Shown here: positions 1 through 33,733 of the stretch, one piece after another
Layout of the letters: every line of letters starts with the position of its first letter
Numbering within the stretch: position 1 is the stretch's first letter
Assembly (NCBI GenBank): GCA_008632985.1
Contig: QPGO01000031.1
Span: 434,001-498,000 of the forward strand
Reading direction: 5' to 3'
Length of the DNA: 64,000 nucleotides
Source: Psammoneis japonica
Taxonomy: Eukaryota
The notes under the pieces: generated by a model
What the model saw: only the letters and a program-made list of their open reading frames with translations
What the model was told of the DNA's origin: nothing
Database searches by the model: none
Program-made: the position numbers and the translations under genes

Positions 1-2022
1 AATTTTTGATTCATCCATTGTGGATTGTACATTTTTATTCTTGATCTCCAAGGCATCTTGGCAGAGACGTTTCAAGTCTGATAATTCCATGACATTGTTG
101 CCGGGCAACGAAGACTGCCATCGTCTCGTAAGTTCAATCCGGTTCAATCGATTCTTTTGCTGAACGACGCGATTTCTGAGGGTAGGAAGAAACGATCGTT
201 TGGGTTGAAAGAAACGAGTCCCACCAAAAGCCAAGACTCGTATTCTATGGGACTGTAGAAGAAACAACATGGAAACGAGACGTAGAAAGAGAAGCAAGGA
301 CTGCGCCATGACGACGGCAACAACACAATAGCGGTATCAACAAGACATGCAATGTGCGATGTATCGTCATACTGAAATTGTCGGTCGTCAAATTCGGACG
401 GACGCCGGATGGACACACGCATCTTCCATCTGCACTGACTGTGCTGTCCGTCTTCATTTCTTTGCTCTCCCGGGCAAACCCACAACGCGGGAAAAACACA
501 GTGAGTCGCGAAGTTTGTCAGGCACACAGGGCCAGTGATCCTCGATCTCGACACTCAGCACCAGATGGCACCGCGTGTTGATGAGCATGAAGCTGGTCAG
601 CACCACATGGGTGCAAAACACACAACGTTGGTCGACGATGGGACACTCTCTGTGCTGCTGGTGCGTTGCTGCCACCCCGAGAGACTCAGAGCCAGTGAGC
701 AGCCTGGATCAGCACATCACATGATTGTCAGTGAACTCCAGCAAGCTCAGATCATGATTTTGGTGCAGACATGCAGACTCAGGTGGGTTGTTTTCCAGCA
801 GCAGTGCAGCACACTTGAGTGCTTCGTGGGCATTGAGAGATTGCAGCTCCTTTGTCAGTGCAGAGGTTGGATGACATGGAGAAAGAGACACATGCCACCA
901 TGCCAGCCAAACAATTGTGGCAGCATCAGAGTGCACGACATCGTAATGTCTGCACACATGACAAAAATGTGTTGCTGTGTTGCAAAATCTGCTTGTCTGC
1001 ACATGGTGGTTTTTGCCATTCAGTCAGTTGTCAATCTCCTGCTGTTCTTCATGTTTGAACACAGGTGCTTTTTAATTTTTGTGCTCAGCCTTTTTCACAA
1101 CTGCTGACGATCTTTAACGACAAGCCAAACATTGCAATTGCATGCAATGAAATTTTCATCATGTGAAGTGTGCACCAATTGTTCAACCAATGACTGTGCT
1201 CCAATTGGCCTGTTCGTCCGCATCGTCCTCTTCATTCCATGTGTCTTGTCCGCTCTCTTGCAAGAATTTCAAACACACATGCCGCTGCCATGTTGGATGT
1301 TTCCTCGTCACTGTTCCAAAAAAGCCACACTGCATTTCTTGCATTTGGGCGAACATCATCGAGAGGAAGAGGTCCCTCGAAACGCAGAATCGTGTCGCTG
1401 CTCCCCTCTTGACGTCGTGTCATCTGCTTCTTTTTCTCTTTCTTCATTTTTCCCATCCTGTTTTTCTCTTCCTTCTTCGTCTTGGCGCTGCCTGTTTTCA
1501 CCGTCTCCGGCATCTTTCCATCCGAATCCTTCTTTTTCATTGATCCTGTCACCGTCACCTTCATCGTGTGTGACTTTGTTTTGGATCCATGTTTCTGACT
1601 TCTCTCTGTGCTGTCCCCATTTCCGAATGTTTCTTTGTGATTGTTCGCATGCGTCACTTGAAGGCACCCATGTGTTCTTCATGCACCTTAACGCGCATGT
1701 AGAAATCCATGTTGTTTTCCAGCACATGCACCCTTTCTCCTGATGCTGTTCCATGCAACATTTTCTTCCATCAATTCTACACTCCGCACTGCCCTTTCCC
1801 GGTGCAATCTCACGCAGGATTTCTCTGGGAGAAGTTGCGTGCGCGTCTGGTGGGTTTTTGTGTGTGAAACTCCAAATCCTGCCAGGCGCGTGTGTGACTT
1901 CTCCCACGCACCACTCTGGTGTGTTTCTGCAGAAACCAGAATTTTGTGACTGACGCACGACCAATCTGGTGAATGCAATGGCGGACCCACGACCACAACA
2001 ATCAGAGCATTAGAAGAAAACC

Positions 2023-2990
2023 ATGTCAGATGAACTCTGTCCATCCGCTGCTCAGGATTTCCATCACCGGATGATGGAGACAGTTGATGGTTTTGTTCAT
2101 GCTGACGCTGCTCGTTGTTCGGAGGAACAGAGAGCAAAGGATGCAAAGGCTGCTGTGTCAAGATCGGTGGAAGCAATGGCAGAAGCCCGTTGTGCCACTG
2201 TGGCTGCAACGACCACACTTGACAGTGCTTTGTTAAATCCAGCAACAACCACTCGCAAATTTAAGCACATCTGTGCGCAGTTGATTGAGTCATCGATCGA
2301 GACACACCATTCAGACAATGACTGTGTTGCCGCAGTGGAAAATTGCAGCGAAGCGGAAATGAGTTTCCAATGCTTTCTTCATGGTGACGCATTTGACGCA
2401 AAAGAATTGGGGCTCCCAATCTCCGTTGTGGACATCAAAAATCAGAGTTGAGGCTGCACATGCTGCACAGCTGTGACTCGACGTTGCTTCTGAGAAGCCT
2501 CAGGGCAAATTCTGACACAGATGCCAACAGAGTGGTGGAGAGGGAGCAATCTGCGATTGACAGCATCAACAAATCCATCCACCGCCGTGCCGTGCCACTC
2601 CTTCGAAGGCAACATCTAACACAGCCGCTGCGCATCCTGAAGGCTGCAATCACATTGCTCCATGGGGCCCTTGACGATTTGAGAAGGAAAGACGTTGCCT
2701 TGCAGTGACAGTGGCAAGCTTTGCATGTTCTGTGGCCAGGCACAGATCAAATGCGGGGAGGGACATGGACCGCGATCTGGGCTGTGGATGAAGAAGCCGT
2801 GGCAAGAGAAAGGGTCCTGCAGTTGGCATCGCAAATCGAGGCACAATTGGTGGCTGTCAACCAGCCTGACCACAGTGCCGACTTTCAGCAGGCAATTGTG
2901 GCTGCCAGGGAACATTTCATGGCGCAGGATGACCAAATGGACCGCGCAAGTGGACACTGCATAGAATCCACGAGGAAGCAATTGCTCTAA
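2023..2990 (+). pseudogene. Unidentified helical ORF fragments inside the transposon
   Basis: ORFs 2023-2451 and 2721-2990 read as protein-like, converge on the transposase 3' end and lack Tyr. No family recognised. Confidence 0.3.
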
Positions 2991-5900
2991 AAATGCACAC
3001 ACTGTGAGCGAAATGACAGATTGAAGCGCGCATCCTGTTTTAGAAACAAATCTGACCAACACTTCCTTCTGTCCTGTGCAGCCCAAACAAATGGGGCCTT
3101 TTCTTGCGCTTCTGCCACTCCTGGACATTCTTCATGAACCAAAACATTGTCCCCAATTGCTTCGACAGGGACAACACGCAACTCAGGTGAGTGCTGAGTC
3201 TTCTCAGGCGTTGACAGCCAGTTGTTTTGTTTGTGATCAAGCTGCCAGCGACTGACCAAGTCTGCATGCTGACACCGTTGCCTCATGGTTCTCTGGTCAG
3301 CTTGACAAGCAGTTGGATGGACAACTGCAAAAATTGATCCTGTGTGTTCCTGTTCAAAGAAACACAGCAAACGGGAGGGGAAACTGTTGATCGCCCTTTT
3401 GTGTGCCAAAGGTCACACAGGCAAAGTCATGCCATGGTCCTTCGCTTTTGAAATCGGGGTGCGCACGGTGCGCATCCCTCCCGTTTGCATTGTAAAACTC
3501 TGTCTTACAAGTCGGGTGTGCATTTTCACTGTCTTCACCAACACAATCCTCCCACTTTTCCGACATGAAGTTTGGCAACACAGGATGAACTTGGCAACGA
3601 GTGTGCTCGCTGTTCCACTCAAACGTCACAGCGCCAATCCCTCGGTTGCAGGTGAGAGTGAACGTGCTTCCTCCCAGCGTGTGATTGTCCATCCTGACTC
3701 TTGATGATTCCTTTTTCCCAGTTGGCAAAATCCAACCATTGGCTGAAATTGCGGCGTTGAGCCTCATTTGGTCCTCCATGCGCGACACGACCTGCTTCAG
3801 AAAACTGTCGAGGTTGCATTGTTGTGTGGTGGATGACGGCAGCTTGAAAAAGTCTTTCAAGAGACACCCCCCCAAGCCTGCGTCAAAGTTCATCGCATGT
3901 TGGCAACAACAAAGAAACACTGGGAGATGGAGTGTTTCATGAAGCTTTCGAAGCTTCCACCCGCATCCTTCTGTTCGCGGGACGAACTGCACTGTCCGGT
4001 CAATGAGGAGACGGATTTTCTTGTTCATTTTCTGAATGGATGAACTGGGAGTTGCGCTTGTGATGGGTGGATCGCCCAGCCTGTGCCATGCGTGGAAGAC
4101 AAGAAGGTCCTCGAGCAATTGAATGAATTGCCGGACGCTGCAGCCGAGTCTTTTCCCTTGCATTTTTTCTTTTTTTGGTTGTCGTCACCATCCTCAGCCT
4201 CACTCTCCTCTTTCTCATCCTCATTTTCGTCCCAGTCACCCTCTTCGGACTCCTCCGACCTTTCATCGTCAGAGTCGTCCAAGTGCTCACTGGGTTGGCA
4301 GCAACTCTCAAAGTTTGCTTTGGGTGTCTTGCGATTCTCTGGAACAATGGGTTCGTCTGTGTCCTCGTCAAGGAAGCATGACTCACATGTGTTTCGTCCC
4401 TCGCTGGTTGACAGGAGAAGGTAGAAAACAAAAGCCATTCCAGCCCAGTGGTGAGAGTTGAGGAAGGCAAGCGACGTTGCTCCTCCTTTGAAGTTTGTTC
4501 GCAAAAAGGATGCTTTGCAAGTTGACTGGTGATTGCTGAAAATCCTTTCCACTGTGCTGTCCACCTCACTTGCGACCACAGGTGTCATGCTGTCTACAAA
4601 TGAATTGATCACCCTTTTCAAGGTGCCGTTTTCAAAGAGATGCATCATGTCGCTTGCTGTCGCAAGGGTGACGCCGCATGGTTGTGCGCCAAAGTCTGCC
4701 TCAAAAAGACAGTTGGCAGGTGCATTGTGTTGCTTGAGGCAATGCAAGATGCCCAACCAGTGCTTCCTTTCTTGGTCTGATCTGTCATCGTCGTTGGCCT
4801 TAGTTTGCACTTGGTGGAGATCCAGTCCTTGGACAAACTCGCATTCAATCCATGGGTCGTCCAGTTTGTTGAAGCCAGTCAGGCAAAAACGACGCAACGT
4901 TGATGACAGTTGTGACCTCCGCATCGTCCGACGAGACAGTCGCCGCTTTTTGCGTCTCCTGTGATGAGAACAATCAGCGGGATCATGTGGAGGTGTCGCA
5001 TCTCATCCCCTCGTCGCACGCATGTTTTCATGCCTCCTTTTCTCATGACTTCCAAAAGTGGCTCCAAAATGACACGCAAGCAAGTGTGGCAGTCTCTTGA
5101 CGAGCGTCCCTTCTCCGCCTTGCGATTGTTTGAGAGATTCTTTGCCGCAGATGACGACATCTTTTCCAAATCCGGGAGATGACCAAGAGGTTTCCAGACA
5201 CTCTTGTCCGACCATTTGTTGAAGGCAACATGCGCAGAGGTCATGATCACTGGTTCTCCGCAATGTGATCCCATCCCTTGTGTCCTGCCAGTCTTGTTGA
5301 GGTAAATGACATTGCACTCGAGAAATTGTTTCTCCGGGTCAGTTGTCCGTTCTTCGTAACTACGCCTGCACCACTCACCTGCCAAAAGGCACTTGTCATC
5401 CGGTCCCTTTGCTTTGTGCTTCCCAAAAGGATTGTCTGGATCGGCCATGTTCTCTCTGCTGCACCACAGGTGAGGATCGAGCAAAAACTGTTCCCAAACC
5501 TTTGTGAAATCCCATCTTGGCACTGACACTCGTTTTGGCAAACCGGTTTTGAAATTTTTGGTTTCTAGAGTGACAGGAATAGACTCGCTGGGTGGAAGAG
5601 GGAAATGCTTGGTTAAGGTGCGCATCAACTCTTTTCTCCTTGGCAGAACTGCACCAAGCTCAATGTTGCTGTCACCAGTGTGCCTCTCAATGAAATCAAC
5701 AATGTGATCGCACAATTCCAGGGGAGCACCACGTGTGTCCATGAGCTTCTTGCACAACTCTACGCAAGCTCCGTCAAGATTTGTCAAAGAGGGAGTAGAA
5801 GCCAAGGCCTCTTCTGCAGGAGCATCACACCTGCTCCCCAAACGTTGATCCTCATCGTCAATGTCCTCTTCCTCCTCCATTGTCACGTCCAACACTGCAG

Positions 5901-6345
5901 CAAAGGATTGACCACCGCCAACATCCAACTTGTTCATTGCCAAAAGTTCAACTCCTTGCATGCTGTGGTTTGATGAAATGGAGGACATGTCGTCCATTCC
6001 GTGCGGCGCGTCATCCAGGGGAGGGGAACAAGGGGCTGCTGCTTGGATCACTCGTTGAAGATCTTGGGAATCTGCTGCGAGTTGATCGCCTGGGATGGGA
6101 TTCGTCATCATCAGAGGACAAAGAGGAAGAACTGCCACTTTCTTCTGGTGGCCCCTCTGTTGTGGCAGGAATGTCGCTTTGATCTGGGACCAGATCTTGG
6201 GTTTGCAACTCTTGGGCAACTGAGCAACACGTCGGTGAGCATCTCCAATGGCAGGCCATTCGCAAAAAACTTTGGTCACAACTGGGACAGAGAAGAGGGT
6301 TTCCGTCCATTGTAAATCAGACAATGTTGACAGGGCCTTCATCAA
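2987..6345 (-). pseudogene. Plavaka-family transposase, frameshifted and hypermutated
   Basis: Consecutive ORFs 4879-6345, 4025-4924, 3354-4163 and 2987-3409 carry motifs I recognise from this family: 'IPLIVLITGDAKSGDCLVGRCGGH', 'DMMHLFENG', 'KLRKLHETLHLP...NFDAG', 'AHRAHPDFKSEGPWHDFACV' (family pattern YRAHP..GPWYD). Confidence 0.75.
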
Positions 6346-6762
6346 GACTCATGCTTGTCGTCCTTGTCTTGTGGATGAGAAGGGGAAAAAAGAACAACAC
6401 GCAAAAAATGGTTGGGAAATTGGCAAACATTACATTGTCTTCCAGATTGGGATGATTCTTGCAGGTGTGACGCATCTGCATTTTGATTTTTTATCTGGCA
6501 TCCACAATGAATGTTGTGCTTTTTATTCACTGTCAAAATGCAGGACATTGTCTCCGTTGAAACGCAATGACAGCCATGTCAAAAAGCAAGTTGGACTGTT
6601 CGTTGTCATGTGCAAATGTGTTTTCAAATTTCAATGTTGCTGACAACAATTTGTGCAATGTCACAGAGAAAAACAGAGTGCCTGGCTGTCTCAACACGAC
6701 CCAAACGACGGTTGCACTGTCGAACAGCACCACTCCTCTCGTTGTTGCCGTGAAAAGATCAA

Positions 6763-7972
6763 GATGTCGTCTCCAGCACAACCGGCAAAGAAGAGAAAGA
6801 AAAATGAGACTGTTGAGCCAATGAGCCCGAGACTTCAGGCAGTGTTGAAGAGAACAGGCACGCAGCAGCGCATGGTGCATTGAAATCAGAAGCAGGGAAG
6901 GTGGCCAGAAATGATCTCTTTCCACAGGTGAAGTTTCTCAGTCCATCTGAGTTGGCAAGCAATGGGAGCGTCTCAATGTTTGTCAAGAAACAGATTGCTG
7001 GTGGCAACATGGACACTTCAAATCGGTCAGGAACTTGGGAGGAATGGGCAAAAAAGGCGGCAAAAGGCAAATTGACAATCGCAGATGTTCGGCTGTTGGG
7101 GCGGAGGCAATGGCACGCAAGTCAAGTGACCAATGTGTGTGATTCGAGAGTTGCGCGCATCTCACAAGAAGATGAAGGTGATGCTTTGTCTGTGTGGGCG
7201 TTGTCACTGAGGAAGAGGGAAAGGAAAAAGAAAAGAAACTCAAGGCGGCAGACAGGAGGAAAAAGAGGAAAAAGTCAAGCCGTGACAAGAATGAAGAGAA
7301 TGACATCCCGTTTGTGCCGACATGGGATCCGTTCAGCCTGGACACTGTCACCGGCGGTAAACGAAGGAACAAGCAGGCATGCAAGTGGTTCTGTGATCAC
7401 ATCCTGCCTCAAACCAAGCAAAAGCAGGCATGGAGCAGCACCGTCAAAACTGGGAACGCACAGGTCTCACAGTTGTTTATGGTCGGTGACGAAGCTTTGG
7501 CACTGTTGGCCATGGAGAGTCATTGGCAGGTGTGGGCATGCAGGAACAAGGAGGAGGCGGTGGAAGAATTGGGTGAGGAAATGGAGCCCGAAGAACAAGG
7601 CCTGCCCCTCGGTGCACGAAGCCAAAGAAACAATGAGTGTCTTGGGGAGACGACGGAATCAATCAGTTCAACGATTTGTGCAAAGAGGTGACGAAAGACA
7701 GAGACTCCAAGGAGGGCAAGGAGTTTGAAAAGTGGCATGCAGAGATCAAGAAAAGCGAGTGCGAGAAGTCCGGAGAAGCAAAAAAGAAGAAAAAGAAAGC
7801 ACCGGCCGGTGATGCAGACAAGGTGAAGGCAATGAACAGCCCAATGGTGGAGAGCAGCAGGGATGATGACAGCAACAACGATGAGCAGGAGGAAGGCGCA
7901 AAAGGCAAAACGGATGACAGAGGAGACGAGTCCGATGGAGACGAGTCCGATGATGATCGTCAGCTTGGTTGA
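6763..7972 (+). pseudogene. Transposon accessory ORF, divergent from the transposase, frameshifted
   Basis: 'FMVGDEALALLAMESHW' and 'SWGDDGINQFNDLCKEVTKDR' match the DEAFALL..EN.W / W..EGI..FN.L...V..DR pattern of accessory ORFs in such elements. Acidic and Lys-rich tails. Confidence 0.55.
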
Positions 7973-9460
7973 GAGAGTTGCAGCAAGAAAATGTGCACAC
8001 AGTTTACACAGCACTCGGTCATTGCACTGCAGACGCAACAAGGGATTGACTTAACCAATGAAATGCTTTTCTCGTTTAAGATGGTGTTTGCGAAAATTGA
8101 CAAACCAAGGATTGTGTGGAAATGCAACCACGCACTGGCATGTGGCAACAAGGTGGAGGCAGACACAGTGATGTGGACACAGTGAAAAACAGCGTGCATG
8201 ATTCTCAACGAGTCATTGCAATGTTGGTGTGGCAAACTTGTGACCAGAGGTTGGCCTTTCATCACATGACAATGATGTTTTGCAACATTTTGATGAATCA
8301 TCATCATGCAAATCTACACATTTTTGACATTTCGTGCACTCTGATGAGGAGGCTCCCATTCTGGTTGTTGACAAGCAGCTGGCTGCTCGTCTGGTTTCAC
8401 GTGCTGAACAAAGCTTTGGCCACTTGCCTTGTGTGCTGCCTGGTTGTGCAGGCCCTTCTTGAGACTGGCCACCCATTCAGGAGAGGAGCAGCTCAACACT
8501 GCGGCCCTGCTGCAGCCTTGGTTCCAGCCACATTGGTGCACTGCTGAGCTGACCCCCAGCGGCGCGCAGCATTTCTTCCTGTGGGCAGGGCACACAAGGC
8601 CAAGACTTGACTCTGTTGTGAACACCTTTCATTTTGGCAGGTTCCAGAAGCTCCAGGTGACAGGCAATGCATGAGTGCAATCATCAAATGTGGCCAACTT
8701 CACTGTCCCACAAACTTCTTCTTCAAGCTTGGTTTTTTCCAAAGCTGAGGTGCAAGCACACACAAGAATTTTTTGTGCAGCCGTGCTCCAATTTGTTTTG
8801 TGGGTTTCCAAATGGGAGTTTCAGGAAAGGTGTTAAGCTGCGATTGATGGATTTTTGGTTTCTCAGGAAAGGTGGTGAGCCCTGCTTGATGGATTTTTGG
8901 TTTCTCACCTGGGGCTGGAACAAGCAAGCCTTTCTTTGGAGTTTTGATGTGCAACCACTTGTGCCTGTGATGTCAAGTTTGGATTCAAGGAGTTGACTTT
9001 TGGAGTGGTCACAAGCAATGCTGTTCATGTCCTCACAACCAAAAAGTGAGAGCAGCCAGACTCTTGTTGCGCTTTGCTCTCATTCTGTGACAGCGTGCAG
9101 AGCAGCAGAAAACAGCCAAGCTGCAAATGCCAGCCACAGCAGCAGGGCGGTGATGAGGAAGAGTGCAAAAGAGTGCATGGTGTTAAAAAAACAGGTGGAG
9201 GGGGGCGCACAAGGAGATGGAAGATGCACTCCAAATCTTCTTTGCTGTTTGCAGTGAAGGGGGGGTTCAAGAGCGGCGGCTGATGACATCGCACCAAATT
9301 TGGCGCGCTTCAATTTTCGCGAGCTGCACCTCTCGCCTGGCTGCCCGTCTTGGATCTTCTGGGCGATGCAGTGTTGATGGCCTCATCATTCTTCCGGTCG
9401 GTATCTTCTATCATAGGGCCCTCCCTGCAGACAGTGCATGCTGTGTAACTTTCAGGACCG

Positions 9461-9910
9461 ATGATTTTGATAATTCGTAATGGTGTCGTTATGATGTTGA
9501 TTGGTTTAATTTACGGTGCCGCTGTCCACGATGCTCCGTACCCTATGCTTGCCGTTGGTACTCATCAACAAATGGTGTTAAACGGCATGTACATTCTCTT
9601 GTTGGGAATGCTTATCGAATTGAATATTTCACGTATCGGTGAGGGCGGTTGGAAATGGGCGATTGTAAAGATAACTTGTGGACCCTATATATGGGTAATG
9701 GTGGTTTTTGAGGTGCTGACCTCCCACTATGGATGTAAAGAATTCCTCAAGATACGGGCCGAAAGCGCAAATGCTCCGGGCTGTAATGCGACATTGGAAA
9801 AGGTATCAGAGGTTGGAATAGTCTCTGCCGGTGTTGGGCTGCTACTTGCAACAGCGATTGTTTTGTATGGTACATTCTGTTCTCCACAAAGGATTGAAAA
9901 GAAGGAATAG
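9461..9910 (+). CDS. Small 4-TM membrane protein, styrene-oxide isomerase (StyC)-like
   Basis: Four hydrophobic segments. 'PYPMLAVGTHQQMVLNG' resembles the StyC-family AH....LNG motif. Normal TpA content. Confidence 0.55.
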   Translation: MILIIRNGVVMMLIGLIYGAAVHDAPYPMLAVGTHQQMVLNGMYILLLGMLIELNISRIGEGGWKWAIVKITCGPYIWVMVVFEVLTSHYGCKEFLKIRAESANAPGCNATLEKVSEVGIVSAGVGLLLATAIVLYGTFCSPQRIEKKE

Positions 9911-10384
9911 CTTTTCTTGGCTTGGATGAGCGTGTTGATGCTGGCTAGCTAGTGCACTCTTAGGGTGCACTTTCTTGGTTGTGGGTTCGTGGCTTATAAG
10001 GACACCTTTTGATTTTTTCAGAAGCAGAACTAGAGAATATTCGTGCAAAGCAGGTCAAGGAGCTAAGAGACAACTGTACGAAGCACTTCGGTAGTCGTAG
10101 AGCTAGCCAGAGATGTAGGTATGCATGTTGATCTATGTAAAAACAAAAGTACAATAAATAGCCAACACTGATGAAGGTTGGCGAACAAATCCGGAATCAG
10201 TGAAAGAACCTAGACGCCTTCCGGTGCAAGTGACGCGGGGGCGAATTCTTCTTCCTCTTCCAATAATGGATCCAACGATCCCACCATTTATTTCGCGACT
10301 TTAACATCGAGAGGTTGTACATTCGGCCGCGCTAGCTACTCCTACTTCACGCTTTTGCTTGAGGAGAACCTCAACATCTCATGT

Positions 10385-11200
10385 CTAGGCAGATCCCTCA
10401 ACGTCAAGCTCCACTTCGTCCACATCGATCTCTTCACCCTGGTCATTCTCGTCTACCTTTGCTTCGCTATTCTGAAGTTCCTTGTCTTCTCCTTCTCTGG
10501 TTCTATTGCGCCCCAAAGCAAAAACCGTGAGTCTGGCCTTCTTGACCTTGAAGTTACTCTTCACCTTGCCGGTTGTCTTCGTTTTCTCTCGCTTCTCTTT
10601 TTTCTTGAAAGGCACATTCTCTTGATTCTTTTCTTCCTCTTTCGTCGCTTCCTTTTCGTCGTAGTTCTTTGCATCCTTGGTCGAATTTTTGGTGTTGACA
10701 CCGGACAAGTCCTTGATGCGAACATCTAGAGGTCGCTGCCATGTCGTTTCGTGAGTCACCTTATTGTAGTAGTAGACTCGATTGGTGTTGGAGTCCATGT
10801 AGGATCTCCAGATGGTCTTAGGTTTCTTCAATTTTTTGCCATTCGCCTCGAAGCCTTCGTTGTTGTCGTTGTCCTTCTTGTGAGGTTGCTCTCGACTATT
10901 ACAAGTAGAATTTTCCTTGCTCTCAACAGGTTCCTCTTTTGGTTCTCTTTCGGAGACATCACCCTTTTTAGTCTTATCCTTCTTGGTGTTAAGCACAAAC
11001 GAAGACAAAACCACACGAGTGGAAGGAGCGCCCCTCGATTCCCCAATCGTTCTGTGGTCCGACTCGTGCTTGTTTCGATCCGCCACCGTTGTCTGCAGAA
11101 GAACAGCTTCAATTCCATTTTCGTCTTCGTCGTTGTAGCCTTGTGATTTAGCCTCCTCGAGAGGCACTTCGGTGGTAGGTGTATCTTCGTTGCACATCAT
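10385..11200 (-). CDS. WW-domain protein, paralog 1 (C-terminally truncated)
   Basis: WW motif 'WRSYMDSNTNRVYYYNKVTHETTWQRP'. Collinear similarity with 13048-13941. Confidence 0.75.
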   Translation of the reverse strand: MMCNEDTPTTEVPLEEAKSQGYNDEDENGIEAVLLQTTVADRNKHESDHRTIGESRGAPSTRVVLSSFVLNTKKDKTKKGDVSEREPKEEPVESKENSTCNSREQPHKKDNDNNEGFEANGKKLKKPKTIWRSYMDSNTNRVYYYNKVTHETTWQRPLDVRIKDLSGVNTKNSTKDAKNYDEKEATKEEEKNQENVPFKKKEKREKTKTTGKVKSNFKVKKARLTVFALGRNRTREGEDKELQNSEAKVDENDQGEEIDVDEVELDVEGSA

Positions 11201-11378
11201 GTTCGACCGGTGTTCTCAACATCTGGCGTGGAGTCACTTTGAGCCTTTTGACATTCATTCCGTGTAGTGTGATAACTTGTTTGTGTTCTGATTTTTATGT
11301 CCCGGATCGTGTTTTTTGCGCGAATGGGTCGCGTGTCGGCGCCAGTCACGCCACGCAGGTCATGAGCTGGCTCTTTTT

Positions 11379-12653
11379 TGTAACGGCAGCTTTGGGCGGG
11401 ACGGGGGACTGACCGACCCGTCCTTCAATTTTTCGACGCGAAATGGCAGTGCACGGCGCACCGGACTCTCTGTTGCCGCCGCTGACGTCCAGTGACCACC
11501 GACGATGCAATGGTGAACTTCAGCCAGCACAAGTTTGCTCTTGACCTTCATTGTTTTTTTCTCTTGTTGTGCACCATTGCCGCAAGAACAGCGAGGCTCG
11601 AACAGCTGTTTTCCTGCTGGTGATTGACTCCTCCTGTGGTCGATTGACAACATGTCGCTCAGCGGCCACACCTGCAAACAAGCACTGCCTTTCTGTTGAG
11701 AACATCTTGAGCAGTGTGCTGTTGTGGTCCTTTCCAGCACCCCGCCAAACTGCCAATTTTGTGCTGGCGCACGGAGCCAAGCAAAAGCCGGTCTCTCAAG
11801 ATCTCTGGTGCACACAGACACTTTTTGGGAGTTGTCAAAGCTGGCAGAAATGAAAAAGGCTTGGCAGTGCAAGCTCCTCACACACCTCTCCTGTTTGGGG
11901 GCACTTGGTCAGGAAGACCAAGCAAATGAGGCAGCTTCTCAAGAAAACGGTCTGTGTGCAGAGTTGCTGTGTGCTGCACAGTGCCTTGTGGCTGCTGCAC
12001 AATGAGCAGAAAAATGGATTCATTTGAAGGAAAACACAGAATTTTTAGAAAGAGGCAGCCAACAAGTGCAAAACTGTGAAGGTGCTTGTTGTCTTTCCTT
12101 CAAGGTGTGGATTTTTGAAAGTGCAAAAAGCACAAATTTGTGGCTGAGGCCAGAAGCCACGCTGCAGCACCCTTTTGCAAACCACTCTGCTGAGACTTGT
12201 TCTCTCTGCATCTGCATCAAAAGTTCTTTGCCAGCTCAACAAACTCTCTCTGAGAAGGAGGAAATGACAAGCCACAACATCACTGCTTGCGCTGTTGTTT
12301 GCACACTTGAATGTGATGCGCCAGAAGCAACCCCATCATTTGCAAATTGGATTTTTCTTCCGGTTGTTGTCATGTGGTGCATCAGAAGATTTCTCTGGCC
12401 ATTTGTGTGTGTTTTCTGCAAAGCACCTTCACATTTATGGATGAGAATGACTTGTGGATGAGAATGACTCTCACCAAAAATTCAAGGGCAGAAGACAGCA
12501 CCCGGCAACAGAAGTGCAGTGCTTGGCCCGGGCGCTGCCCCAGCACACTTGTTCCCACAATCTGCACCACTTTTCCCACCCTGCAAAATGACAAGGGGTG
12601 CAACTTCACCACAACCACTGTCAAGAAATGCCAACTAGATCAGTGATGTTACA
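11379..12653. mobile_element. Degenerate non-coding repeat or TE remnant (TpA-depleted tract 2)
   Basis: TpA- and partly CpG-poor segment bounded by TGTAAC (11379) and GTTACA (12653). No TSD and no recognisable ORF. Confidence 0.4.
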
Positions 12654-13047: not shown

Positions 13048-13941
13048 TTACAGGCAGGCAGATGCCGGTGAAACTCCGGTCGTGGCGGATTCATTGTCTT
13101 CTTCCACCACAGGGTGCAACACCGCCACCTTGCTGCGCGATTTGAACATAGAAAGATGTTTCATTCTCAATCCCTTCTTTCTCTTGGGTGTTTTCTTGAA
13201 AAGTACCTCACCATCGGATGTCATGGCAGATCCCTCAATATCTAGCTCCACGTCATCAACATCGATTTCTTCATCCTCCTCGATCTTTTCCTCCGTGACC
13301 TTGGGTTTCGTGTCTTGTTCCTCCATGGTTCTATCGCGTCCCAGGGCAAACACAGTGAGTCCAGCCTTCTTCTCTCTAAAATTGCTATTCACCTTAGCAG
13401 CCGTCTTCGCTTTCTTCGCTTGCTTCTCTCCTTCCTCTTCGGTTTCTTCCTTTTTCTCTTCTGTCTTGGCCCGCTTGTTGGTCAAGTCCTTGATGCGGAC
13501 ACCTTGAGGTCGCTCCCACGAAGTTTCGCGAGTCTCCTTGTTGTAGTAATAGACTCGATTGGTGTTGGGGTCCATGTAGGATCTCCAGACGGTCTTGGTC
13601 TTGGGTTTCTTGGTTTCGTTTTTCTCGGCTTCTTGCTCTCGACTGCCCGCATCCTCCTTGCGCGCAACTGGTTGTTCCTCTACTGGCTCACGGTCGGCTA
13701 CATCATCCTTTGTCTCTTCGTTGGTGTCAAATACACAAGAAGACAAAACCACTCGTGTTGAGCTGGCACTGCTACTGCTGGATTTCCCTATCGATTTGAG
13801 GACCGACTTGAGCTTCATTCGATTCGTCTTTGTCGTTTGCACAAGAACAGCTTCAAGTCCTTCGTCTCCGCTGTCGCATTCTTGTGATTTCTCCTCCTCG
13901 ACACGAACGGCAAATGGGGTCTCTTCCTTGCACATGGTCAT
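13048..13941 (-). CDS. WW-domain protein, paralog 2
   Basis: WW motif 'WRSYMDPNTNRVYYYNKETRETSWERP'; intact 297-aa ORF. Confidence 0.8.
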   Translation of the reverse strand: MTMCKEETPFAVRVEEEKSQECDSGDEGLEAVLVQTTKTNRMKLKSVLKSIGKSSSSSASSTRVVLSSCVFDTNEETKDDVADREPVEEQPVARKEDAGSREQEAEKNETKKPKTKTVWRSYMDPNTNRVYYYNKETRETSWERPQGVRIKDLTNKRAKTEEKKEETEEEGEKQAKKAKTAAKVNSNFREKKAGLTVFALGRDRTMEEQDTKPKVTEEKIEEDEEIDVDDVELDIEGSAMTSDGEVLFKKTPKRKKGLRMKHLSMFKSRSKVAVLHPVVEEDNESATTGVSPASACL

Positions 13942-14501
13942 TTTTCTATCGTTTTTGTGGCCTCAATAACAAGAGTGTGTTGCATTCGTGTTGTTGTTCT
14001 TCTGTCTTGTTGCAAATCGTGTTGGCTCATTATTTGGCGCGACACGAGCTGCCCCGATCTTTTAATAACTTATTATTTACGAATATCTGCAATGATATTT
14101 CGATATTAGCGAATTAATAAATCAAATATGAATTTGGCGCGATAAAGGGTATCTTGTTAAAAAGATATATTATTAGGACATTAATACTAAATTGAATTTT
14201 CTAATAATCTTGTCTACACAATTTCTGCTACTGATCCGCGCATGTAGATTTCAACGGAAATTCCCCGTACAATCGACAAGACTGAACATCATAGTGACCT
14301 TACAGTACCTTCAGTAGGGGCCCTACTGAAATGATACCGGTAGCGAACACATGGGCGGGCGGAATCCAGATACCGGTACGGTACACCCACAAGTTCAAGC
14401 GCCAGCGTCGCGGATGACGATGAGGAACGGCGGGTTTTGAGCGTGCGCATTGAACATCCACTAGTACGCCATACAGGAGTTAGAAGACTTTTAGTTCAGC
14501 C

Positions 14502-20085: not shown

Positions 20086-21645
20086 CGTGTAATTTTTAGG
20101 ATTGATAGATGATGTCTTGTCACTTTCTGTCTTCCTGGGTTCTCGTTGCAGCGGTTTGCTTCTAAAAATTTCTCGGAGTTTTCTTCCTGGTTTTCCTTCC
20201 TTTCTTTTATTGACTAATTTATAAAATGATTCAGAAATGCTTTTTATTAATGTCCATATGCGTGTGTAACCTCATCGTTTCGCAATGAGAACACACCAAA
20301 ATGGGCACATCCCATCTGCTCAGATGCGGGGAGCTCGCTTTGTCCTCGCTCTGCCGTCAGGCGGCAACAGATGCTGCAATCTTGACAACAACTGAAACAA
20401 GACTTGGTTTGAGGCCTGCCCCTGCGCATCCCAGTGCAACTGCTCGTCCTCCGGAGAGTTCCCAGCTCCATGCTCCCGCCAACTGCCCTCTCAACTGCAG
20501 CCAACGTGCGACTTCTCTCACCCGGGGTTCAAACAAAAAAAGTCAAGATGAAAGCGATTGGCGTGCAGCTGATTGGGCCACCCAAGAGCTGGTGGACACT
20601 TGCTGTGCTCTCGCACGTGTGGACGAATGCAGCCAAAACTTGTGTTCCTCTGCGGAAATCATTTTTTAAGAACAATCAAAACAAACTGTGAAAGTGAGTC
20701 AAGTGCCTGCACAAATGAAATGAAAGCAAGGATGCATGCTGTCAACCCAAGTGGCAGCTGGAGTGAGACCAGCTCAAAGACCTGGGCACACCCAGCTGAG
20801 TCAGCTCATGTGCTGCCAGCTGGAAGCCAGCTGTTGTGTCTGAGGACAGCAACATTCCCAAAGAGAGTGCAATCAGCCAAAGCTTGAAACCCTCAAATCA
20901 GGCAGCTTTAACTTGCAGCCAGTTTTCTTGGATGAAGTCATGAATGAAGTTGCAGCAATGAGCTGGGCTGATGCCACCAAGCTCTTGACCAAGTGCTGCA
21001 AGCTCCTCGCGCCTTTGGAGAGCCAGTGCGCTGACAGCAACCACGGCTTGTGTGCATTTCACCTTTTCATCTCTTGTTCACCAACACACTTCCAGCTGCC
21101 AAGCTCCTCATGCCCAAATGTCTGCAGTCACAAACTTCACAGGAGAGCTGCTTCCCCCACTCTGTGTTGCAACAGCTTGCAGCAAAAAGGTCAGCACTGT
21201 CAATCAAGAGCAAGTTCCTCAGCAAGGTGGTTGTGCCTGTCAACAAGGCACCTTTTCCATCAACCCCAGAGCCCAGCATCGAGGCCCACTTGTGTGCAGT
21301 CAAAGACTCACGTGTGCGAGTGGCGCTGCTTCACTTGCCAGCATCACCAGCATGGCATGTGCGCAGGTGTGCTGACAGCCATTTGTGTGGGAAACAAACC
21401 TGCCAAATGCCCCTCTTGGATGCCCCCCCCCCCCCCCCCCGATTGTGCGCTGCAGCTCCCAGCCACAGCATCCCCATGTGGGGTGAAGCACCAGCCGCAA
21501 GACACTGCAAATCTGCACCCGTTGCGCCGGGTGAGATGCCTCAAATCTTGTCATTGCAAAGTGCCCCACAAATGGTTCCACTGACTGGGTTCATGCTTCT
21601 ATTTTCATTTGCGTCAAACACTCGAGTTGCTCTCTTGGAGACTTG

Positions 21646-21830
21646 TGTCAGTCCACCTGTCGTACGATGGACAGACTGTGTGGATGATGACTGGACCATT
21701 TGGACAGATGAGCAGATCTCTCTGAGATCTGCCTCTCACTTTCTCATCCACTGGTGCTCGTGCTGTCACAGTCCCAGTGCTTGGGGAGTCTTTCATGCCT
21801 CCATCATCATTGACCTTCAGCATTCTGTCA
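21646..21830 (+). repeat. 5' LTR (185 bp)
   Basis: Direct repeat of 28600-28786; starts and ends TGTCA. Confidence 0.95.
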
Positions 21831-22029
21831 GGTTGTGGCCTTGCGCTGTGCCACAGAACTCTGGCAAAGCTTTCCATCTTGATTCATTTGTTTTGTGAGC
21901 CGACCGAGCAAGCCTCGTCATCTGTTCCAACAACAATTTTTTTCTCGTTTTCCCGGCATTTTTCACGATCGTAGAAACACACCAGATTTCTGCGTGTGCA
22001 TGACCAAAAATGCCCTCTCCAAGTGAAAC

Positions 22030-25000
22030 CATGGCATCTCCCGACCTTGCAAAGGCCGCTCAACGTCCATCACAGAGATCCATTGTGAATTTCAAGAACA
22101 TGCAACGACACCTCATTTCCATGCGACCTTGAACAAGACACACACGGATTCAATGTTTGATCTGGACCCGTTCTTTGATGATCCAGAACATGCTCAAGAA
22201 AGATTTTGTTGACACATTTCGAGTTCACCTCATCAACATGGCGTTCCCACCTTGCACGGTTCATCCTGCAGACATGCAGCCTGTCAAGACGATTGTGGAT
22301 GAAGCTGCGTTCCGCATTGTTGACTCTGCCAGGCCTCGTGCAACCCGCATGATGCCCGCATCTCTCTCATCGATCATCAAGACCAATCTCCGGAACCACA
22401 ATCAAATCACATGTGTTGTCATCTCTACACACCACATCAACGTTGACCCCGACATGATGTGGAACTGTGAGGATTGGAAGGAGTTCTCCCTCATGCCCTG
22501 CCTGCAGAACCCACAGCCCACACCATCATCTACGACTGGTTCAGGACCCACAACAGCTGGTGTGAATGACTCAATCACGCCCTCAACAAGTTTGTGTCAA
22601 GCCACGCTCCGCCTTCTGCTGCCTCTGGCAAGACCTCTGGAACCCCTGCAACTTCCACAGCATCCAAACATCTCTTCAATCCCAACACCTGCAAAGAAAG
22701 TGGTGCCGTCACCCTGAAGAGCTCTCTGGTCCCTTGTGACATGGATTCCGCCACTGTGTTGATGCATCAGACCGCATCATTCTCAATGATGGTGCCCCAT
22801 TCATCATGAGCTCAGCCCCCAACCAGAAGATGCCATTCAGAGAACCTCGATCTGCCATGACGATTCTCCCGCTGGGACACGTGCATGGCACCAAAATTTT
22901 CAACGTCACTCCTTTGACTCGGGACACTGTGTGCATCCTTTGTGGTGCTTTCCAAGGACCACGGTGGTGAGAAGGGTTTTGAGATTGGCAATGGCAAAGA
23001 TGATGACTCACCCCAACGAATGTATGTTCATTGTAAAGAAGCACAAAGTTCCCTTCACAAGACACTTTCCAAGTCGGACATGTTCCCCAAGAACAGCAAG
23101 TGTCATCGGATTGTTGCATCATGCTGTGGCAACGGCTGCAAGGCTCTCAAGCAAATTGTCTGTGAGAACCACCCAGCTTTCACCACGAAGCTGCTGGGTT
23201 GGTAGATTCCCACCCTGTTCAAGGAAATCTGTCCTTGACGGACTGTCACTTGCGTTTCAAGGATTTTCTACAGCTGCGCGCTTGTGTCTTTAATGTGGAC
23301 TCTACGTTGGATGACTCTCGAGAGATGACTGTTTTCATCAAGAACACCAAATGCTCCAAGTTCTCACCCCATGCTGCTGGAGATGAAAGGAAGTCCCCTG
23401 CTGTGCTCAAGAAGTGCACGGATGCACAGATTGTTGAGACCCCATCTGACTTCCTTTGTCAGTCGGATGGCCATCTCTTGCAACTCACACGAATCCTCGC
23501 AATCCACACCGCACATGGGATCGACACCCAGGGGACACACATTGCACAACTGCCGATGTCAATTCCTTGACTGTCCCGGATGTCCCTCCCATTGCAGAGG
23601 ACACTGATGAGCCACCTTCACCGATCACTCCCCCGAGGACACCTTTGACTCCCTCTGTGCTGAATTGCATGACCTTGACATGCCTTCTGCAGATGAAGAT
23701 CGTCTTCTTCATCATGTTTGCTCTGCTTTGGCACACAAACTCAAGGTTGCTCCCACAGAGGCCTCCAAGAAACCATGCCTTGTTTGTTCTGAAGAACACT
23801 TGTTCCACGAGTGTCCTGTCTTGAATGACAACCCGCCATCAAGGGCTTCCACACACGTTTTTGTCAATTCTTGAAGTGTGAAGCGGCCATGCGAGCCTCT
23901 GGATTTCAAGGACCACAAGGTTTGTTGCCGCCTCATCAAGGACCATCTGATTCTCGCCCAGTGCTGGTGTCCAGTCTCCGGATTTTCAATCGGGACATCG
24001 CAGCTGGTTTTGGATCTCCGACGCAGCCCATTCTCTGCCCACCAAGACAAGACCAATGTCAGCGGGATGACTGTGAAAGAGGGACCAAACGTCTCGTCAT
24101 CTGCCGCTGTGCTGCCTCTTTCTTTGACGACTGATGTGGACTGCATCCCTGACTCGAAGGTCTCTCCTGACACCATCAAGTTGCCTGATGATGATCCTGT
24201 TTCTCCCTGATGGCACATTGGAGACTGATCCTGTTCTGGACTCTTTAGAACAGGGGAGGGAAGATTTAGAGGAATGTGAATTTGCCAAGTTTGTTGATCT
24301 TGCCTGTGATGACATTGCTGTTGAGGACGGTTTTGCCACAGTGAATTCTGTCCGCGTTTCCCCACTTGTCCCACTGCACGATGATGATTGGATCCACCAG
24401 ATCTGCTCCGCACTGCCTGCGCTGTCAATGGTGTCAAGTTTGCCCCAAATGAGCAATGTGCTCAACTTGACACTGGTGTGCTGATGTTGCTTGTGCTGGA
24501 GATTGTGATCTCCTGCATCAATGCCAGGCATTTGCTCCTTCCGCCCCGTGCCCGCTTGCTGCCAATCCAGCTCTTGGACATGAAGCTGTCCCAGTCGGCT
24601 TTGGATGTCTTCGCATCCCTGCGGAGAACTCCGATGGCCATGTTGAGATTCGTGCATGTCACCACCCCACAGCTCCAATCCACCTTGGTTGATGAGCATT
24701 TGCTGCTCCGTCAGAATGGCGCCCGTCACATGGATTGCAATGTTGATTGCATCCTCAAGTTCCATGATCTTGGCACTTGCAAGTTTGTTGTGCACGGCAT
24801 CATTTGCGCAAGAGTCAGGATGTTGTTGTTCATGGGAAACTGATCAATGGCAAGTGTCACACTCACCCACTCATTCTCCCAGAATCACATGATGAGCCAG
24901 ACGCATCAATCGAGCGCCTCAAGGCAAGTGACCCCTCCTTTGCGGATGAATGTGAAGCAGTCTCAGCCCACATGATTGAAACACATCGTGAACACCAACA

Positions 25001-28000
25001 TGATGCTCTCTGCATGGAACGAAAGTTGATCCCCTGAGCATGTCAAGACATCCCGTTTGAGCAGCACGCCAAGAAGAACACTCCCGTTCAATCCCTCAAG
25101 GCTGGTGCGGAACGCCTTTTATGGCATCAACGTCTTGGACACCCCAGTGATCACTGTCTTTGCCATGCTCACGAACATGTTGATGGTGTCCCCAAGTTTG
25201 CACATGGCACATCCCCCCTTGACACTTGCCCCACATGCATCCGGGCCAAACAGATGAAGGAACCTGCTGGACCCAATGCTGCTTTGACAGCCACCCAACC
25301 CCACCAAGGTCTCACCGTAGACTTTTCTTTTTCTGGTCTCCGCTCCAGGAACACTGAGCATGTCAAAGACTGTGTTGGGTTGAATGGTGAGACGTGTTGG
25401 ATCACCGTTTATGATCATGCAACGAAGCACCTCCATGGTGCGACTCGTGTCTCAAAGGCCACCCCCTTGAATTGGATTCGCCACTTTCTGGAGGAGCACT
25501 CGCCAAAATGTCCTGATGAACATGTTTTTCTGGATCAAGGAGGTGAACTGTGTGACAATCCGGTGGTTCGGCGACTCTTTGAGGATGACTTTCATTGTGC
25601 AATTTGTCCCACTGGCAAAGATGCTTCAAATCAGAGTGGCCCAGTTGAACGGAGTCATTTGACCATTGCCAATGCCATTCGGGCGATGCTTGTCAGTGCC
25701 AATTTACCCGTCAAGTTCTGGCCCCATGCTTTCCATCACTTTGTTCGGATCAAGAATGCTGTGCCATCCCGGGGGCAGACTGCTGCTCCGATTGCACTTG
25801 CTGCTGGTCGGAAGGATGACTTTTGGAACTTCCACACATTTGGTTGTCGCGTTTGGGTGCGTGCTTCGAATCACCGTCCGGCAAAATTCCGGACCGTCTC
25901 ACGCAAAGGGATTTTCTTGGGATGCCTCCCGGATGCCACCAAGAACATTTTATGGCATGACACCGAGACATCGCGTGTCAAGCTGGCCAAGCACATCAGA
26001 TGTGATGAGGGGATGAATGATTTACCCCACGAATCTATTCCCCTGAATGTTGTTCATTTGCAACGTGCTCAGGCTGGTGATGCCCTCCCTGCCGACACTG
26101 AAGAGACCACTGTGGATGAGCTCCACTTTCATGGTAACCCTTTCGCCAAGACCATCACACGCATCATGAAAGGACCTTTCACGGATTCCACTTTTGGCTT
26201 TTCATTGGCTGTGGATGATCCACACCAACGTGTTTTTGTCTTGGACATTAAATGTGGTTCCCCCGCTGCTCGTCTCTTCTCAAACTTGAAGGCAACCCAC
26301 AACAAGATCAAAGGCACACACACAGTGTCGATTGATCATCAACCAGTTTTTACCCATGACGATGCTGTCAAGCATTTCCAGCAGTTGCGTGAGTCTGGCA
26401 AGACACATTTTGAAATTGAATTCATGCCAGAACGTTGCTTGGACTCTCAGGCTCTCCAACGTGCTCTGATGGAACATGACGTGTTCTCCCCCACCCCGGA
26501 CCCTGACGATGAGCATGTCCCGGAGCTTGCACAAGCCGACACACGTGCCATTGCTGCAGTGCGCCATCCGGGTGCTGATTTTGAAGCCATTGACAACAAC
26601 GACGTCCCACCACCTGTCCATGTTGACCGTGACAATGGTGTCATCCATGTCCGTGCGACATCCTCCCATGCAATTGCCCCAGAGCAACAAGCCTTGGGCA
26701 CCTTCACTCGCCATCGACTCAAGAAAATGGACACTTGGCCTGAATGGCATGCGGGCGAATTTAAACAACTTGACCAGTTTCATGAGTTGGGCATGTTTGG
26801 TGCTCCCATCAAACGTCCGAAGGACGCAGTTGCACTGAGACCACACTGGCAATGTGACCTCAAACATGATGGTGCGCGACGCTCTCGTCAGTGTTGTGAC
26901 GGATCCCCTCGTGCTGCATCTGTTCTCCACCGTCTTTGTTCAACATGCTCCTCCTGTGTTGAGCAACCTGTCCAATGGATGTTCTTTGCCCTGGCAGCTA
27001 CGATGGGTTGTCTGGTGCATGGCGGTGATGCCCGCGATGCCTGTGCCCATTCTCCCCGCGCCCATCACATCCTGTCTGCGTTGCCATTGACAATGCATGT
27101 GCGACTTGGCACAAGTCTCGCTTTGGAAAGGAATTGGACAGGAGCACGGCACTTCCCGTGCAACATGCTCTTCAAGGACACCCAGAAGCCGGCGTGCTCT
27201 GGGAGAATCACATTGATGGTGTCTCATCTGATGTGAATCTTTTGTTCCGGAACACTGCTCATGACAAATGCATCTGCTCTGCTGCATTTGAAGGACACAA
27301 AATTTTGCTCCTTCGACAGGTCGATGACTTCGCCATTGCTTGCCCCGAGGAGTCCATTGCCAGGACGATCTATGACAGGATCGGCAAAGCCCTTCAATTG
27401 GACTCAGAAACTGCTCCCCCTTTCAAGCACCTTAGCCTCTTGGAGGAATTCAATGGCGTGGACATCCATCAGCATGATGATTCGATTGGCATTGCCATCC
27501 ACAATTACATTGATCGTGTTTGCCTCTCACACGGTTGGTCTGCACCAAGTGATGACGAACTGCTTGATGACTCCAAGGTGACTCCGATTCCGGTGGACTC
27601 CATTTGAGATCTTTACACTGACATTGGTCCTGCTGAAGGTACACTGGAACATGTGGAGCTGCATCAAGCTGCTGGATTTGGATGCCGTGCCCTCCTTGGT
27701 GAGCTGTTGTGTGCGTGTGTTGTCTGTCGACTCGATGTTGGCTGTGCTGTCACTGCCCTTTCCAAGTTCTCCACTTGCCCTGTGGTGGCACATTGTGATG
27801 CACTCAAGGGTGCATGCAAGCACATCTCCGATGTGCCAAACATTGGGAATTGAACTGCAAGAAATCTAAACGTGACCCGAGCCTCCCTGCCTGTCCGTTT
27901 GAACGCTTGAGCCCCAGCCCGTCTCTCCCGTCATTCCCCACTCCTGAGCATGACCATCAACTTGTTGCCTTCCTTGATGCTGCATGCGGAAATGATCTTC

Positions 28001-28430: not shown

Positions 28431-28599
28431 TGTTTTTTCTGCGGTGGCCTCCCCTGCTGTGCATTGCCCCGTCGTTTGATGCGTGTTGGGCTTGGACACC
28501 TTTGGTGTCCTCTTTCTGGTCGCTCTGTTTACATCATCCCCATTCTTGTTTTGATCTGCACTGTCTTCCATTTTTGAGACATTGCAGATCAGGGGAGGG

Positions 28600-28786
28600 T
28601 GTCAGTCCACCTGTCGTGCGATGGACAGACTGTGTGTGGATGATGACCGGACCATTCAGACAGACGAGCAGATCTCTCTGAGATCTGCCTCTCACTTTCT
28701 CATCTACTGGCACTCGTGTTATCACAGTCCCAGTGCTTGGGGAGTCTTTCACACCTCTGTCATCATTGACTTTCGGCATTCTGTCA
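28600..28786 (+). repeat. 3' LTR (187 bp)
   Basis: Direct repeat of 21646-21830; preceded by a polypurine tract. Confidence 0.95.

Positions 28787-33691: not shown

Positions 33692-33733
<42 letters not shown>

Follow-up and report, generated by a model that had tools for sequence, protein, structure and literature searches.

In a 64,000-nucleotide stretch of the genome of the diatom Psammoneis japonica (GenBank assembly GCA_008632985.1, contig QPGO01000031.1, positions 434,001 to 498,000 of the forward strand), which we call the window and number from its first letter, four sharply bounded blocks have lost nearly all of their TA dinucleotides to CA and TG. Block 1 carries a Plavaka-family DNA transposon and block 3 a Ty1/Copia retrotransposon with long terminal repeats (LTRs). 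A TpA-specific A:T to G:C process has acted here on chromosomal DNA, on both strands and independently of copy number, within bounded domains that also lost CpG. The proof that it acted on DNA after integration comes from block 3 and not from block 1: the two LTRs of the Copia insertion differ from each other mainly at former TA sites.

Dinucleotide composition of the TA-poor blocks

All composition results concern this one window of one genome. We called TA-poor blocks over the whole window by a two-state Viterbi segmentation of TA occurrence. Block 1 (371-9401; 9,031 bp) retains 38 TA, which corresponds to an observed/expected ratio (O/E) of 0.067; its O/E is 1.57 for CA+TG and 0.60 for CpG. 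The respective values are 3 TA, 0.037, 1.63 and 0.52 for block 2 (11297-12635; 1,339 bp), 41 TA, 0.079, 1.63 and 0.55 for block 3 (20268-29098; 8,831 bp), and 5 TA, 0.026, 1.86 and 0.23 for block 4 (33133-36189; 3,057 bp). The remaining 41.7 kb form five host segments, in which the segmentation detected no further TA-poor tract. The four host segments of at least 1.9 kb have O/E values of 0.53-0.64 for TA, 1.07-1.20 for CA+TG and 0.87-1.0 for CpG, and the 370-bp segment at the start of the window has values of 0.41, 1.19 and 1.25. With 0.0389 TA per base, as in the host, about 351 TA would be expected in block 1 instead of 38 (Poisson P ~3e-101). The initial annotation of this DNA had counted by hand 2 TA in 7021-7980 and about 26 in 9481-9900, and recounting gave exactly these numbers, the former two at 7358 and 7478. 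It had also described TA as common up to about 372 and again from about 9400. This agrees with the positions found: the last TA before the block lies at 370, the next one at 944, and normal density returns from 9402.

The dinucleotides lost and gained about balance. From host to blocks, the share of TA among all dinucleotides falls from 0.0389 to 0.0039 and that of CG from 0.0544 to 0.0332, a combined loss of 0.0562 (0.035 from TA and 0.021 from CG). CA+TG gains 0.0597 at the same time, going from a share of 0.1440 to one of 0.2037. The pooled blocks have a CpG O/E of 0.52, compared with 0.98 in the host, and their content of G and C is 0.50-0.52, compared with 0.46-0.48 in the four larger host segments.

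Both strands were affected equally. The counts of CA and TG are 866 and 904 in block 1, 133 and 140 in block 2, 871 and 920 in block 3, and 319 and 381 in block 4. Along block 1 the two are even in nearly all 500-bp windows, and the balance is more variable in block 3. A runs test found no strand-coordinated clusters of CA or TG beyond the variation of the host (z from +0.9 to -1.9).

Among the 87 TA that survive in the four blocks, 17 stand in TTAA, which is 5.8 times the share of TTAA among host TA. By contrast, none stands in ATAT and one in ATAC/GTAT. Read on one strand, the flanking bases thus have an effect: an A that precedes another A (equivalently, a T that follows another T) resists the change, which occurs most readily in TAT.

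Since DNA free of TA cannot hold the stop codons TAA and TAG, long false open reading frames (ORFs) arise on both strands. There are 29 stop-to-stop ORFs of at least 120 amino acids (aa) overlapping 1-10500. Throughout block 1 they run to 120-489 aa on both strands, and most of them are not genes. Block 4 also holds a short GT-rich tandem array at 33694-33831.

Divergence of the two LTRs of the Copia element

The Ty1/Copia element lies at 21646-28786 on the forward strand within block 3, with LTRs at 21646-21830 and 28600-28786 and the Pfam domains gag_pre-integrs, SH3_retrovirus and RVT_2. The LTRs have TG..CA ends and are flanked on each side by an identical 5-bp target-site duplication, ACTTG. 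Both LTRs of an insertion derive from a single template, so that whatever distinguishes them now came about in the chromosome, after integration.

The two LTRs differ at 12 substitution sites and by one 2-bp indel. At four sites one LTR has TG and the other CA at the same dinucleotide; at three, TA stands against TG or CA; at three, CpG stands against TpG or CpA; and two are other C/T differences. The spectrum is therefore TpA-restricted in the main, with seven of the 12 differences derived from TA, three from CpG and two from neither. When 16 random transitions were placed on the LTR in 100,000 trials, the chance of obtaining at least four TG/CA doubles was 4e-5. Counting the visible copies of ancestral TA sites, 11 of 14 have mutated, as against 2 other substitutions in about 370 bases. 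This puts the mutation rate per TA site some hundredfold over the background, a rough figure from small counts.

Similar differences appear elsewhere in the window. Between the two members of a direct repeat in block 4 (33114-33300 and 34837-35031), CA and TG are swapped at many places. At 12003-12004 in block 2, when the window is set against the read contigs described below, one source has TG and the other CA, at single-copy depth. The initial annotation had held that the process acts on DNA and is not confined to one class of transposable element. Both points stand: the LTR differences postdate integration, CA and TG are balanced on each strand, and a class II element in block 1 and a Ty1/Copia element in block 3 carry the same signature.

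A Plavaka-family transposon in block 1

The Plavaka-family copy spans 924-8346 on the reverse strand (7,423 bp). These bounds were set by inverted ends that coincide with the boundaries of multi-copy sequence. The left terminal inverted repeat (924-941, forward strand) and the right one (8329-8346, reverse strand) are complementary at 17 of 18 positions, and the exact 15-nt inverted ends, 924-938 and 8332-8346, are the only two matches within the window. No long inverted repeat extends across 780-1100 and 8190-8500, where there are just the 18-nt ends and an 11-nt subterminal match. No clear target-site duplication was found at 924 and 8346; at most there is a 2-bp AG on either side.

Depth was taken from contigs of a public run of accurate reads (run X1, platform unrecorded), with a single-copy k-mer depth of about 57. 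This run may be from the window's own source sample, and the three public runs listed are all of one sample and provide no independent strain. The summed read-contig depth is 4,753-25,681 in 467-bp bins over 935-8406, compared with about 57 on both sides; unique read contigs end at 951 and resume at 8354. This corresponds to a family of roughly 80-450 copy equivalents, deletion derivatives included. Some read contigs join over internal deletions, for example from 1445 to 2655, 5823 to 6146 and 7401 to 8088. The outer parts of the element, 935-1868 and 6539-8406, have the greatest depth, and the transposase region (2336-6071) has less. Such a profile is expected if full copies are outnumbered by deletion derivatives that retain those outer parts.

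The remnant of the transposase gene lies at 3044-5838 on the reverse strand. In tblastn it falls into four pieces in three frames, with frame shifts near 4893 and 3377, and the pieces cover residues 191-1151 of the closest full-length homolog, P0004 (1,154 aa), at 34-47% identity per piece (E 1.6e-106 and 4e-60). The comparison with profile hidden Markov models, which the initial annotation had proposed, succeeded for the relatives and fell short for the window itself. The window's own ORF scored 19.0 bits against PF18759 (E 9e-4), below the Pfam gathering cut-off of 26.3, and the cut-off is passed by the homologs P0004 (28.4 bits), P0008, P0012, P0020, P0023 and P0026. The copy resembles Plavaka transposons in that its ORF pieces align along a protein that passes PF18759, and in its inverted ends and internally deleted derivatives. 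It differs in an ORF that is below the cut-off, frameshifted and nearly free of tyrosine, and in lacking a clear target-site duplication.

Direction of the change

Tyrosine codons contain TA, and their fate indicates that the change runs from TA to CA or TG. The three long transposase pieces contain 0.3-0.4% tyrosine, compared with 2.97% pooled over 150 homologs, together with 3.5-4.6% histidine (3.25% in the homologs) and 4.0-4.3% cysteine (2.25%). The motifs quoted in the initial annotation (AHRAHP..GPWHDFACV and GRCGGH) are present in the window. Against P0004 they display the replacements claimed for them: RYGGKNC has become RCGGHNC, with tyrosine to cysteine, and GPWYDWALV has become GPWHDFACV, with tyrosine to histidine. 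The 28 tyrosines of P0004 that align to the window meet cysteine 7 times, histidine 6 times and tyrosine twice, while overall identity between the two sequences is 353/852.

The same shift is seen against up to 150 homologs, whose pooled pairs are not independent. A homolog tyrosine faces tyrosine in the window in 9.6% of 2,220 pairs, histidine in 16.8% and cysteine in 15.9%. As a control, we aligned the same homologs to P0004, where the values are 40.7%, 3.2% and 1.3% (2,795 pairs). Other codons that contain TA behave likewise, with isoleucine to threonine at 9.1% in the window and 3.4% in the control; asparagine to aspartate stands at 16.8% and 9.3%. In conserved columns, defined by at least 60% agreement among at least 8 homologs, the window keeps one of 7 tyrosines compared with 152 of 185 other residues (Fisher P 3e-4).

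The initial annotation had conceded that its reading would fail if unmutated family members were natively free of TpA. We scanned metagenomes for relatives with an alignment of 5 sequences. All 27 loci encoding relatives have normal TA in the gene (O/E 0.40-0.67), so the Plavaka family is not natively TA-free. Four of these relatives (L022, L023, L024 and L026) combine normal TA with a CpG O/E of 0.12-0.21, which implies CpG decay without TpA erasure in other hosts. A word-indexed search for closer transposase relatives returned none among longer proteins and one, at 38% identity, of similar length. The best match of an exhaustive search had 40% identity, and neither search returned an unmutated near-identical copy.

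Inheritance of TA loss within the Plavaka family

The initial annotation took the window's Plavaka copy as itself converted by the process. The copy does carry the signature, but most of its TA loss was inherited from a progenitor that was already TA-poor. Over the 14 kb compared with the read contigs, 138 places have another letter in at least 10% of the depth. The kinds of difference were counted among the 40 of these 138 places that are listed, 21 of them inside 924-8346. There, the window has TG or CA and the reads have CG at 10 places, the window has CG and the reads TG at 2, two TG/CA doubles account for 4, and 5 are of other kinds. At none of these 21 places (among the 40 of 138 listed) does the window have CA or TG where the reads have TA.

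Independent loss in each copy would leave the alternative product, at a high share, at around half of the 300 or so former TA sites, and this is not so. The LTR pair demonstrates that the outcome at a site is not predetermined, so states shared between copies mean shared descent. Because the CA and TG states are common to the copies, most of the TA loss predates the amplification of the family. Most other copies have an extra base after 4893 (depth 1,076 of 1,208), and one base is missing at 3377 in every contig there (depth 3,420). These indels match the frame breaks of the window, and both frameshifts are therefore private to the window copy. A TA-poor and nearly tyrosine-free progenitor thus still multiplied, by its own transposase or by one acting in trans. 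A few TA-rich master copies are possible, as contigs drop rare variants.

Outside the element, the read contigs depart from the window at 1 letter over 1-951 and by 16 letters and 7 gaps over 8354-12281, and these spans include TA-poor sequence. Over the latter 3.9 kb this amounts to a difference of about 0.4%. At 6 of the 15 differing places listed in single-copy TA-poor DNA, CpG stands against TpG or CpA, which suggests ongoing CpG decay or a second haplotype.

Borders of the blocks and the role of repetition

The initial annotation had placed the transposon within a TpA-poor tract with sharp borders. The steps are indeed sharp, to within tens of bases, and TA density is normal from the first bases beyond each block with no gradient. 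However, they are not the ends of the transposon. When the ends mapped by inverted termini and read depth (924 and 8346) are compared with the TpA steps, as the annotation had proposed, the steps of block 1 lie 553 bp and 1,055 bp outside them. For the 553 bp of the left flank (371-923), 21.5 TA are expected and 0 are present, with a CpG O/E of 0.58; for the 1,055 bp of the right flank (8347-9401), 41 are expected and 2 are present, with a CpG O/E of 0.34. Both are single-copy by depth. Block 3 likewise extends past the Copia element, by 1,378 bp on the left and 312 bp on the right. On the side of the host, the next long ORF lies 48 bp past the end of block 1, and from the end of block 3 it is 78 bp to the first in-frame methionine of a zuotin-like ORF, upstream of its DnaJ domain.

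Identified transposons occupy two of the four blocks (1 and 3). Among 53 ORFs in the flanks and in blocks 2 and 4, Pfam returned no match except a sub-threshold zinc knuckle in block 4 (34626-35006), and the longer flank ORFs have no Pfam match either. Nor do the flanks resemble one another in sequence, or any other part of the window. No terminal repeats were found at the edges of block 1 (371 and 9401). We considered 361-371 and 9401-9415 as a target-site duplication and rejected the pair as too weak, a loose similarity of host sequence. The flanks may be older relics, TA-poor before the elements inserted, or they may have been reached by a process that spreads outward from an insertion as far as functional sequence.

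Repetition does not account for where TA was lost. Block 2 is single-copy by read depth and lies between two WW-domain gene paralogs (10385-11215 and 13048-13962, both on the reverse strand) with normal TA and CpG. These paralogs belong to a tandem duplicate (10353-11160 and 13191-13901) whose DNA is 73-88% identical over about 800 bp. As this duplicate is TA-normal, repetition alone is not the trigger; and as the flanks and block 2 are TA-poor although each is single-copy, the process does not track repetition. Equally TpA-free tracts in single-copy DNA were what the initial annotation had named as evidence against its reading. Such tracts do exist here, in the flanks and block 2, but they do not overturn the reading, because they adjoin or separate transposon sequence and may be old relics.

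Proposed mechanism and alternative explanations

We consider it probable that a heritable process on double-stranded DNA turns TpA into CpA or TpG, that is A:T to G:C, in defined transposon-bearing domains of the diatom genome. Such domains would take in transposons and as much as about 1.4 kb of the DNA next to them, with neighbouring genes spared and sharp edges. CpG loss is the expected trace of cytosine methylation. Since the same domains lost CpG, a silent or methylated state of chromatin is the most likely targeting signal, and not sequence repetition. As for the chemistry, our leading candidate would be deamination of adenine to inosine on either strand by a TadA/ADAT-like deaminase, an enzyme type that naturally acts in tRNA on an A with a U before it. 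The Plavaka family would have become TA-poor first and would then have amplified to its present 80-450 or so copy equivalents.

Several points weigh against this proposal. Both the chromatin targeting and the deamination are steps that we infer from sequence. TA is self-complementary, so that T to C by thymine modification would give an identical pattern. The TA-poor single-copy flanks could be mutated host DNA or old relics alike. The transposon at 924-8346 offers no direct proof of mutation at its locus, as other copies share its CA and TG states. Finally, the family reached high copy number when already TA-poor, which means that the process did not stop its spread.

The chemistry could lie in thymine instead. 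In silenced transposons, a TET/JBP-type dioxygenase would convert the T of TpA to 5-hydroxymethyluracil (5hmU) or to a more highly oxidised base, and T to C would follow when the modified base mispairs with G or is mis-repaired, leaving the domains and the spectrum unchanged. Every count given above fits this chemistry equally well: TA is self-complementary, a T to C change on one strand reads as A to G on the opposite one, and sequence alone cannot tell the two chemistries apart. Oxidised thymine derivatives are mutagenic toward T to C. Nevertheless, no TC to CC signature was seen, although no search was aimed at one, the window ORFs scanned contain no TET/JBP domain, and we know of no 5hmU in diatoms. 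In favour of thymine chemistry there is a finding in dinoflagellates, which also belong to Sar: in the parts of that study that we draw on, 5hmU preferentially replaces T at TA and TC, and the enzyme helps silence transposons (PMC11572971). Taken together, we regard thymine chemistry as unlikely, though worth keeping in view.

A low TA content could also be native to these elements or selected, for example through avoidance of a host factor that recognises TA, and would then not reflect mutational decay. In keeping with this, near-identical copies in the same genome are also TA-poor, and the majority carry indels that restore the frame at the two frameshifts. The LTR pair has already largely refuted the idea, since the LTRs of one insertion diverged from TA to CA or TG after integration, beyond the reach of selection on the element. 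Moreover, conserved tyrosines were lost while other conserved residues were kept (1/7 and 152/185), all 27 relatives elsewhere are TA-normal, and the loss extends to non-coding LTRs, to single-copy flanks and to unrelated elements. We therefore give native TA poverty very little credence.

An assembly artefact is more improbable still. If modified bases in transposon DNA were miscalled by long-read base-calling, strand-specific miscalls of a symmetrically modified TA could yield CA or TG at random. However, the contigs of accurate reads, from a run that may be of the same sample, reproduce the TA-poor single-copy parts, and the tract is therefore not a miscall of modified bases.

Editing of transposon RNA from A to I by an ADAR- or ADAT-like enzyme, fixed through an RNA intermediate, has next to no chance of being the cause, even though such enzymes usually prefer a U before the edited A (as stated in the B. 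natans preprint discussed below, bioRxiv 10.64898/2026.01.13.699255, in the part of it that we draw on). Cut-and-paste transposons do not move through an RNA copy. If one RNA strand had been edited, TG would be confined to the sense strand, whereas CA and TG are balanced in every block and tyrosine meets histidine (16.8%) as often as cysteine (15.9%). In addition, the LTR differences arose after integration, and single-copy non-coding flanks are affected.

Relation to known hypermutation systems

The closest known system is that of the chlorarachniophyte Bigelowiella natans, where Mettrop et al. describe TpA hypermutation of integrated viral DNA in mutation-accumulation lines (bioRxiv 10.64898/2026.01.13.699255). 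According to the parts of this preprint that we use here, two integrated viral regions received 231 of the 302 new mutations. Almost all mutations in these regions were A to G or T to C, and every one of these lay on a TpA. Among coding sequences depleted of TpA, DDE-endonuclease and reverse-transcriptase domains were over-represented, and the authors propose a TadA/ADAT-like enzyme. Our window has in common with that system, as there described, exclusive change of TpA to TpG or CpA, action on single-copy DNA, and a long-term trace of low TpA with high CpA+TpG. The TpA to TpG/CpA spectrum, the sparing of host genes beside affected regions of mobile DNA (here two blocks with identified transposons) and action on DNA in place, independent of repetition, were all found in the window, and we conclude that it records the same kind of process in another Sar lineage.

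There are also differences. The host of the known system belongs to Rhizaria, and the present one is a diatom (Stramenopiles). The giant-virus region of B. natans has a Rho of 0.45 in the portion of the preprint consulted, compared with the near-saturated O/E of 0.03-0.08 here. In the window, the process has affected transposons of both classes and the DNA beside them, the loss of TpA is accompanied by one of CpG, and flanking bases have an effect, with TTAA surviving. The evidence in the window is the fixed trace alone, as opposed to de novo mutations in B. natans. A full-text literature search found no report of a TpA signature in diatoms, the B. natans preprint being the sole report found. 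In the literature searched, no targeted A:T to G:C hypermutation of a genome was found before that preprint of 2026.

The process resembles the repeat-induced point mutation (RIP) of fungi in being a dinucleotide-specific transition hypermutation at the DNA level that degrades transposons. RIP can also reach past the repeat into flanking DNA. However, RIP turns CpA into TpA and leaves an AT- and TA-rich product, whereas here TA is destroyed and GC raised. RIP needs duplicated sequence, whereas here single-copy tracts are affected and a tandem duplicate is spared. The change of C to T at CpA with a rise in TpA that marks RIP is absent from the blocks, where TA O/E is 0.06 and GC is raised. The process is thus a mirror image of RIP and not a form of it (for RIP of ascomycetes, see for example the description in part of PMC7296669).

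Methylation-driven CpG decay in transposons shares with the process a self-complementary target, the products TpG and CpA, and a restriction to silenced elements. Decay of this type is also present in the blocks beside the loss of TA. It cannot remove TA, however, and the loss of TA (0.035) exceeds that of CG (0.021).

The appearance of a stronger and cleaner trace in a second, distant lineage suggests that the process is widespread in Sar algae. It is tied to domains that are depleted of CpG and presumably methylated, and transposons can still amplify after their TA has been erased. A more speculative extension, which we hold to be possible but doubtful, is an old defence by chromatin-guided base editing that diatoms, chlorarachniophytes and so perhaps all of Sar would share. 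It would rewrite TpA to CpA/TpG throughout silenced domains and in diatoms would run to saturation beside cytosine methylation, and some families would have responded by becoming almost TA-free. Families almost free of TA would no longer be a substrate and could still multiply, as the Plavaka family did. Two practical consequences follow. TG against CA in an LTR pair serves as an internal assay for action at the DNA level and can be used on any assembly. For annotation, TA-free DNA produces pseudo-ORFs on both strands, and tyrosine-free pseudo-proteins fall under family cut-offs.

Other features of the window

An ABC1-kinase exon at 44043-45347 on the reverse strand is 77-79% identical to proteins of the diatoms Cylindrotheca fusiformis, Epithemia clementina and Leptocylindrus danicus, the first and third of which were also placed by a taxonomy look-up. 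A fungal host, which the Plavaka match had at first suggested, is rejected on this ground. An uninterrupted ORF of 1,387 aa lies in TA-normal host DNA at 54432-58595, also on the reverse strand; it has no Pfam domain and contains an internal 81-bp tandem repeat at 57060-57302.

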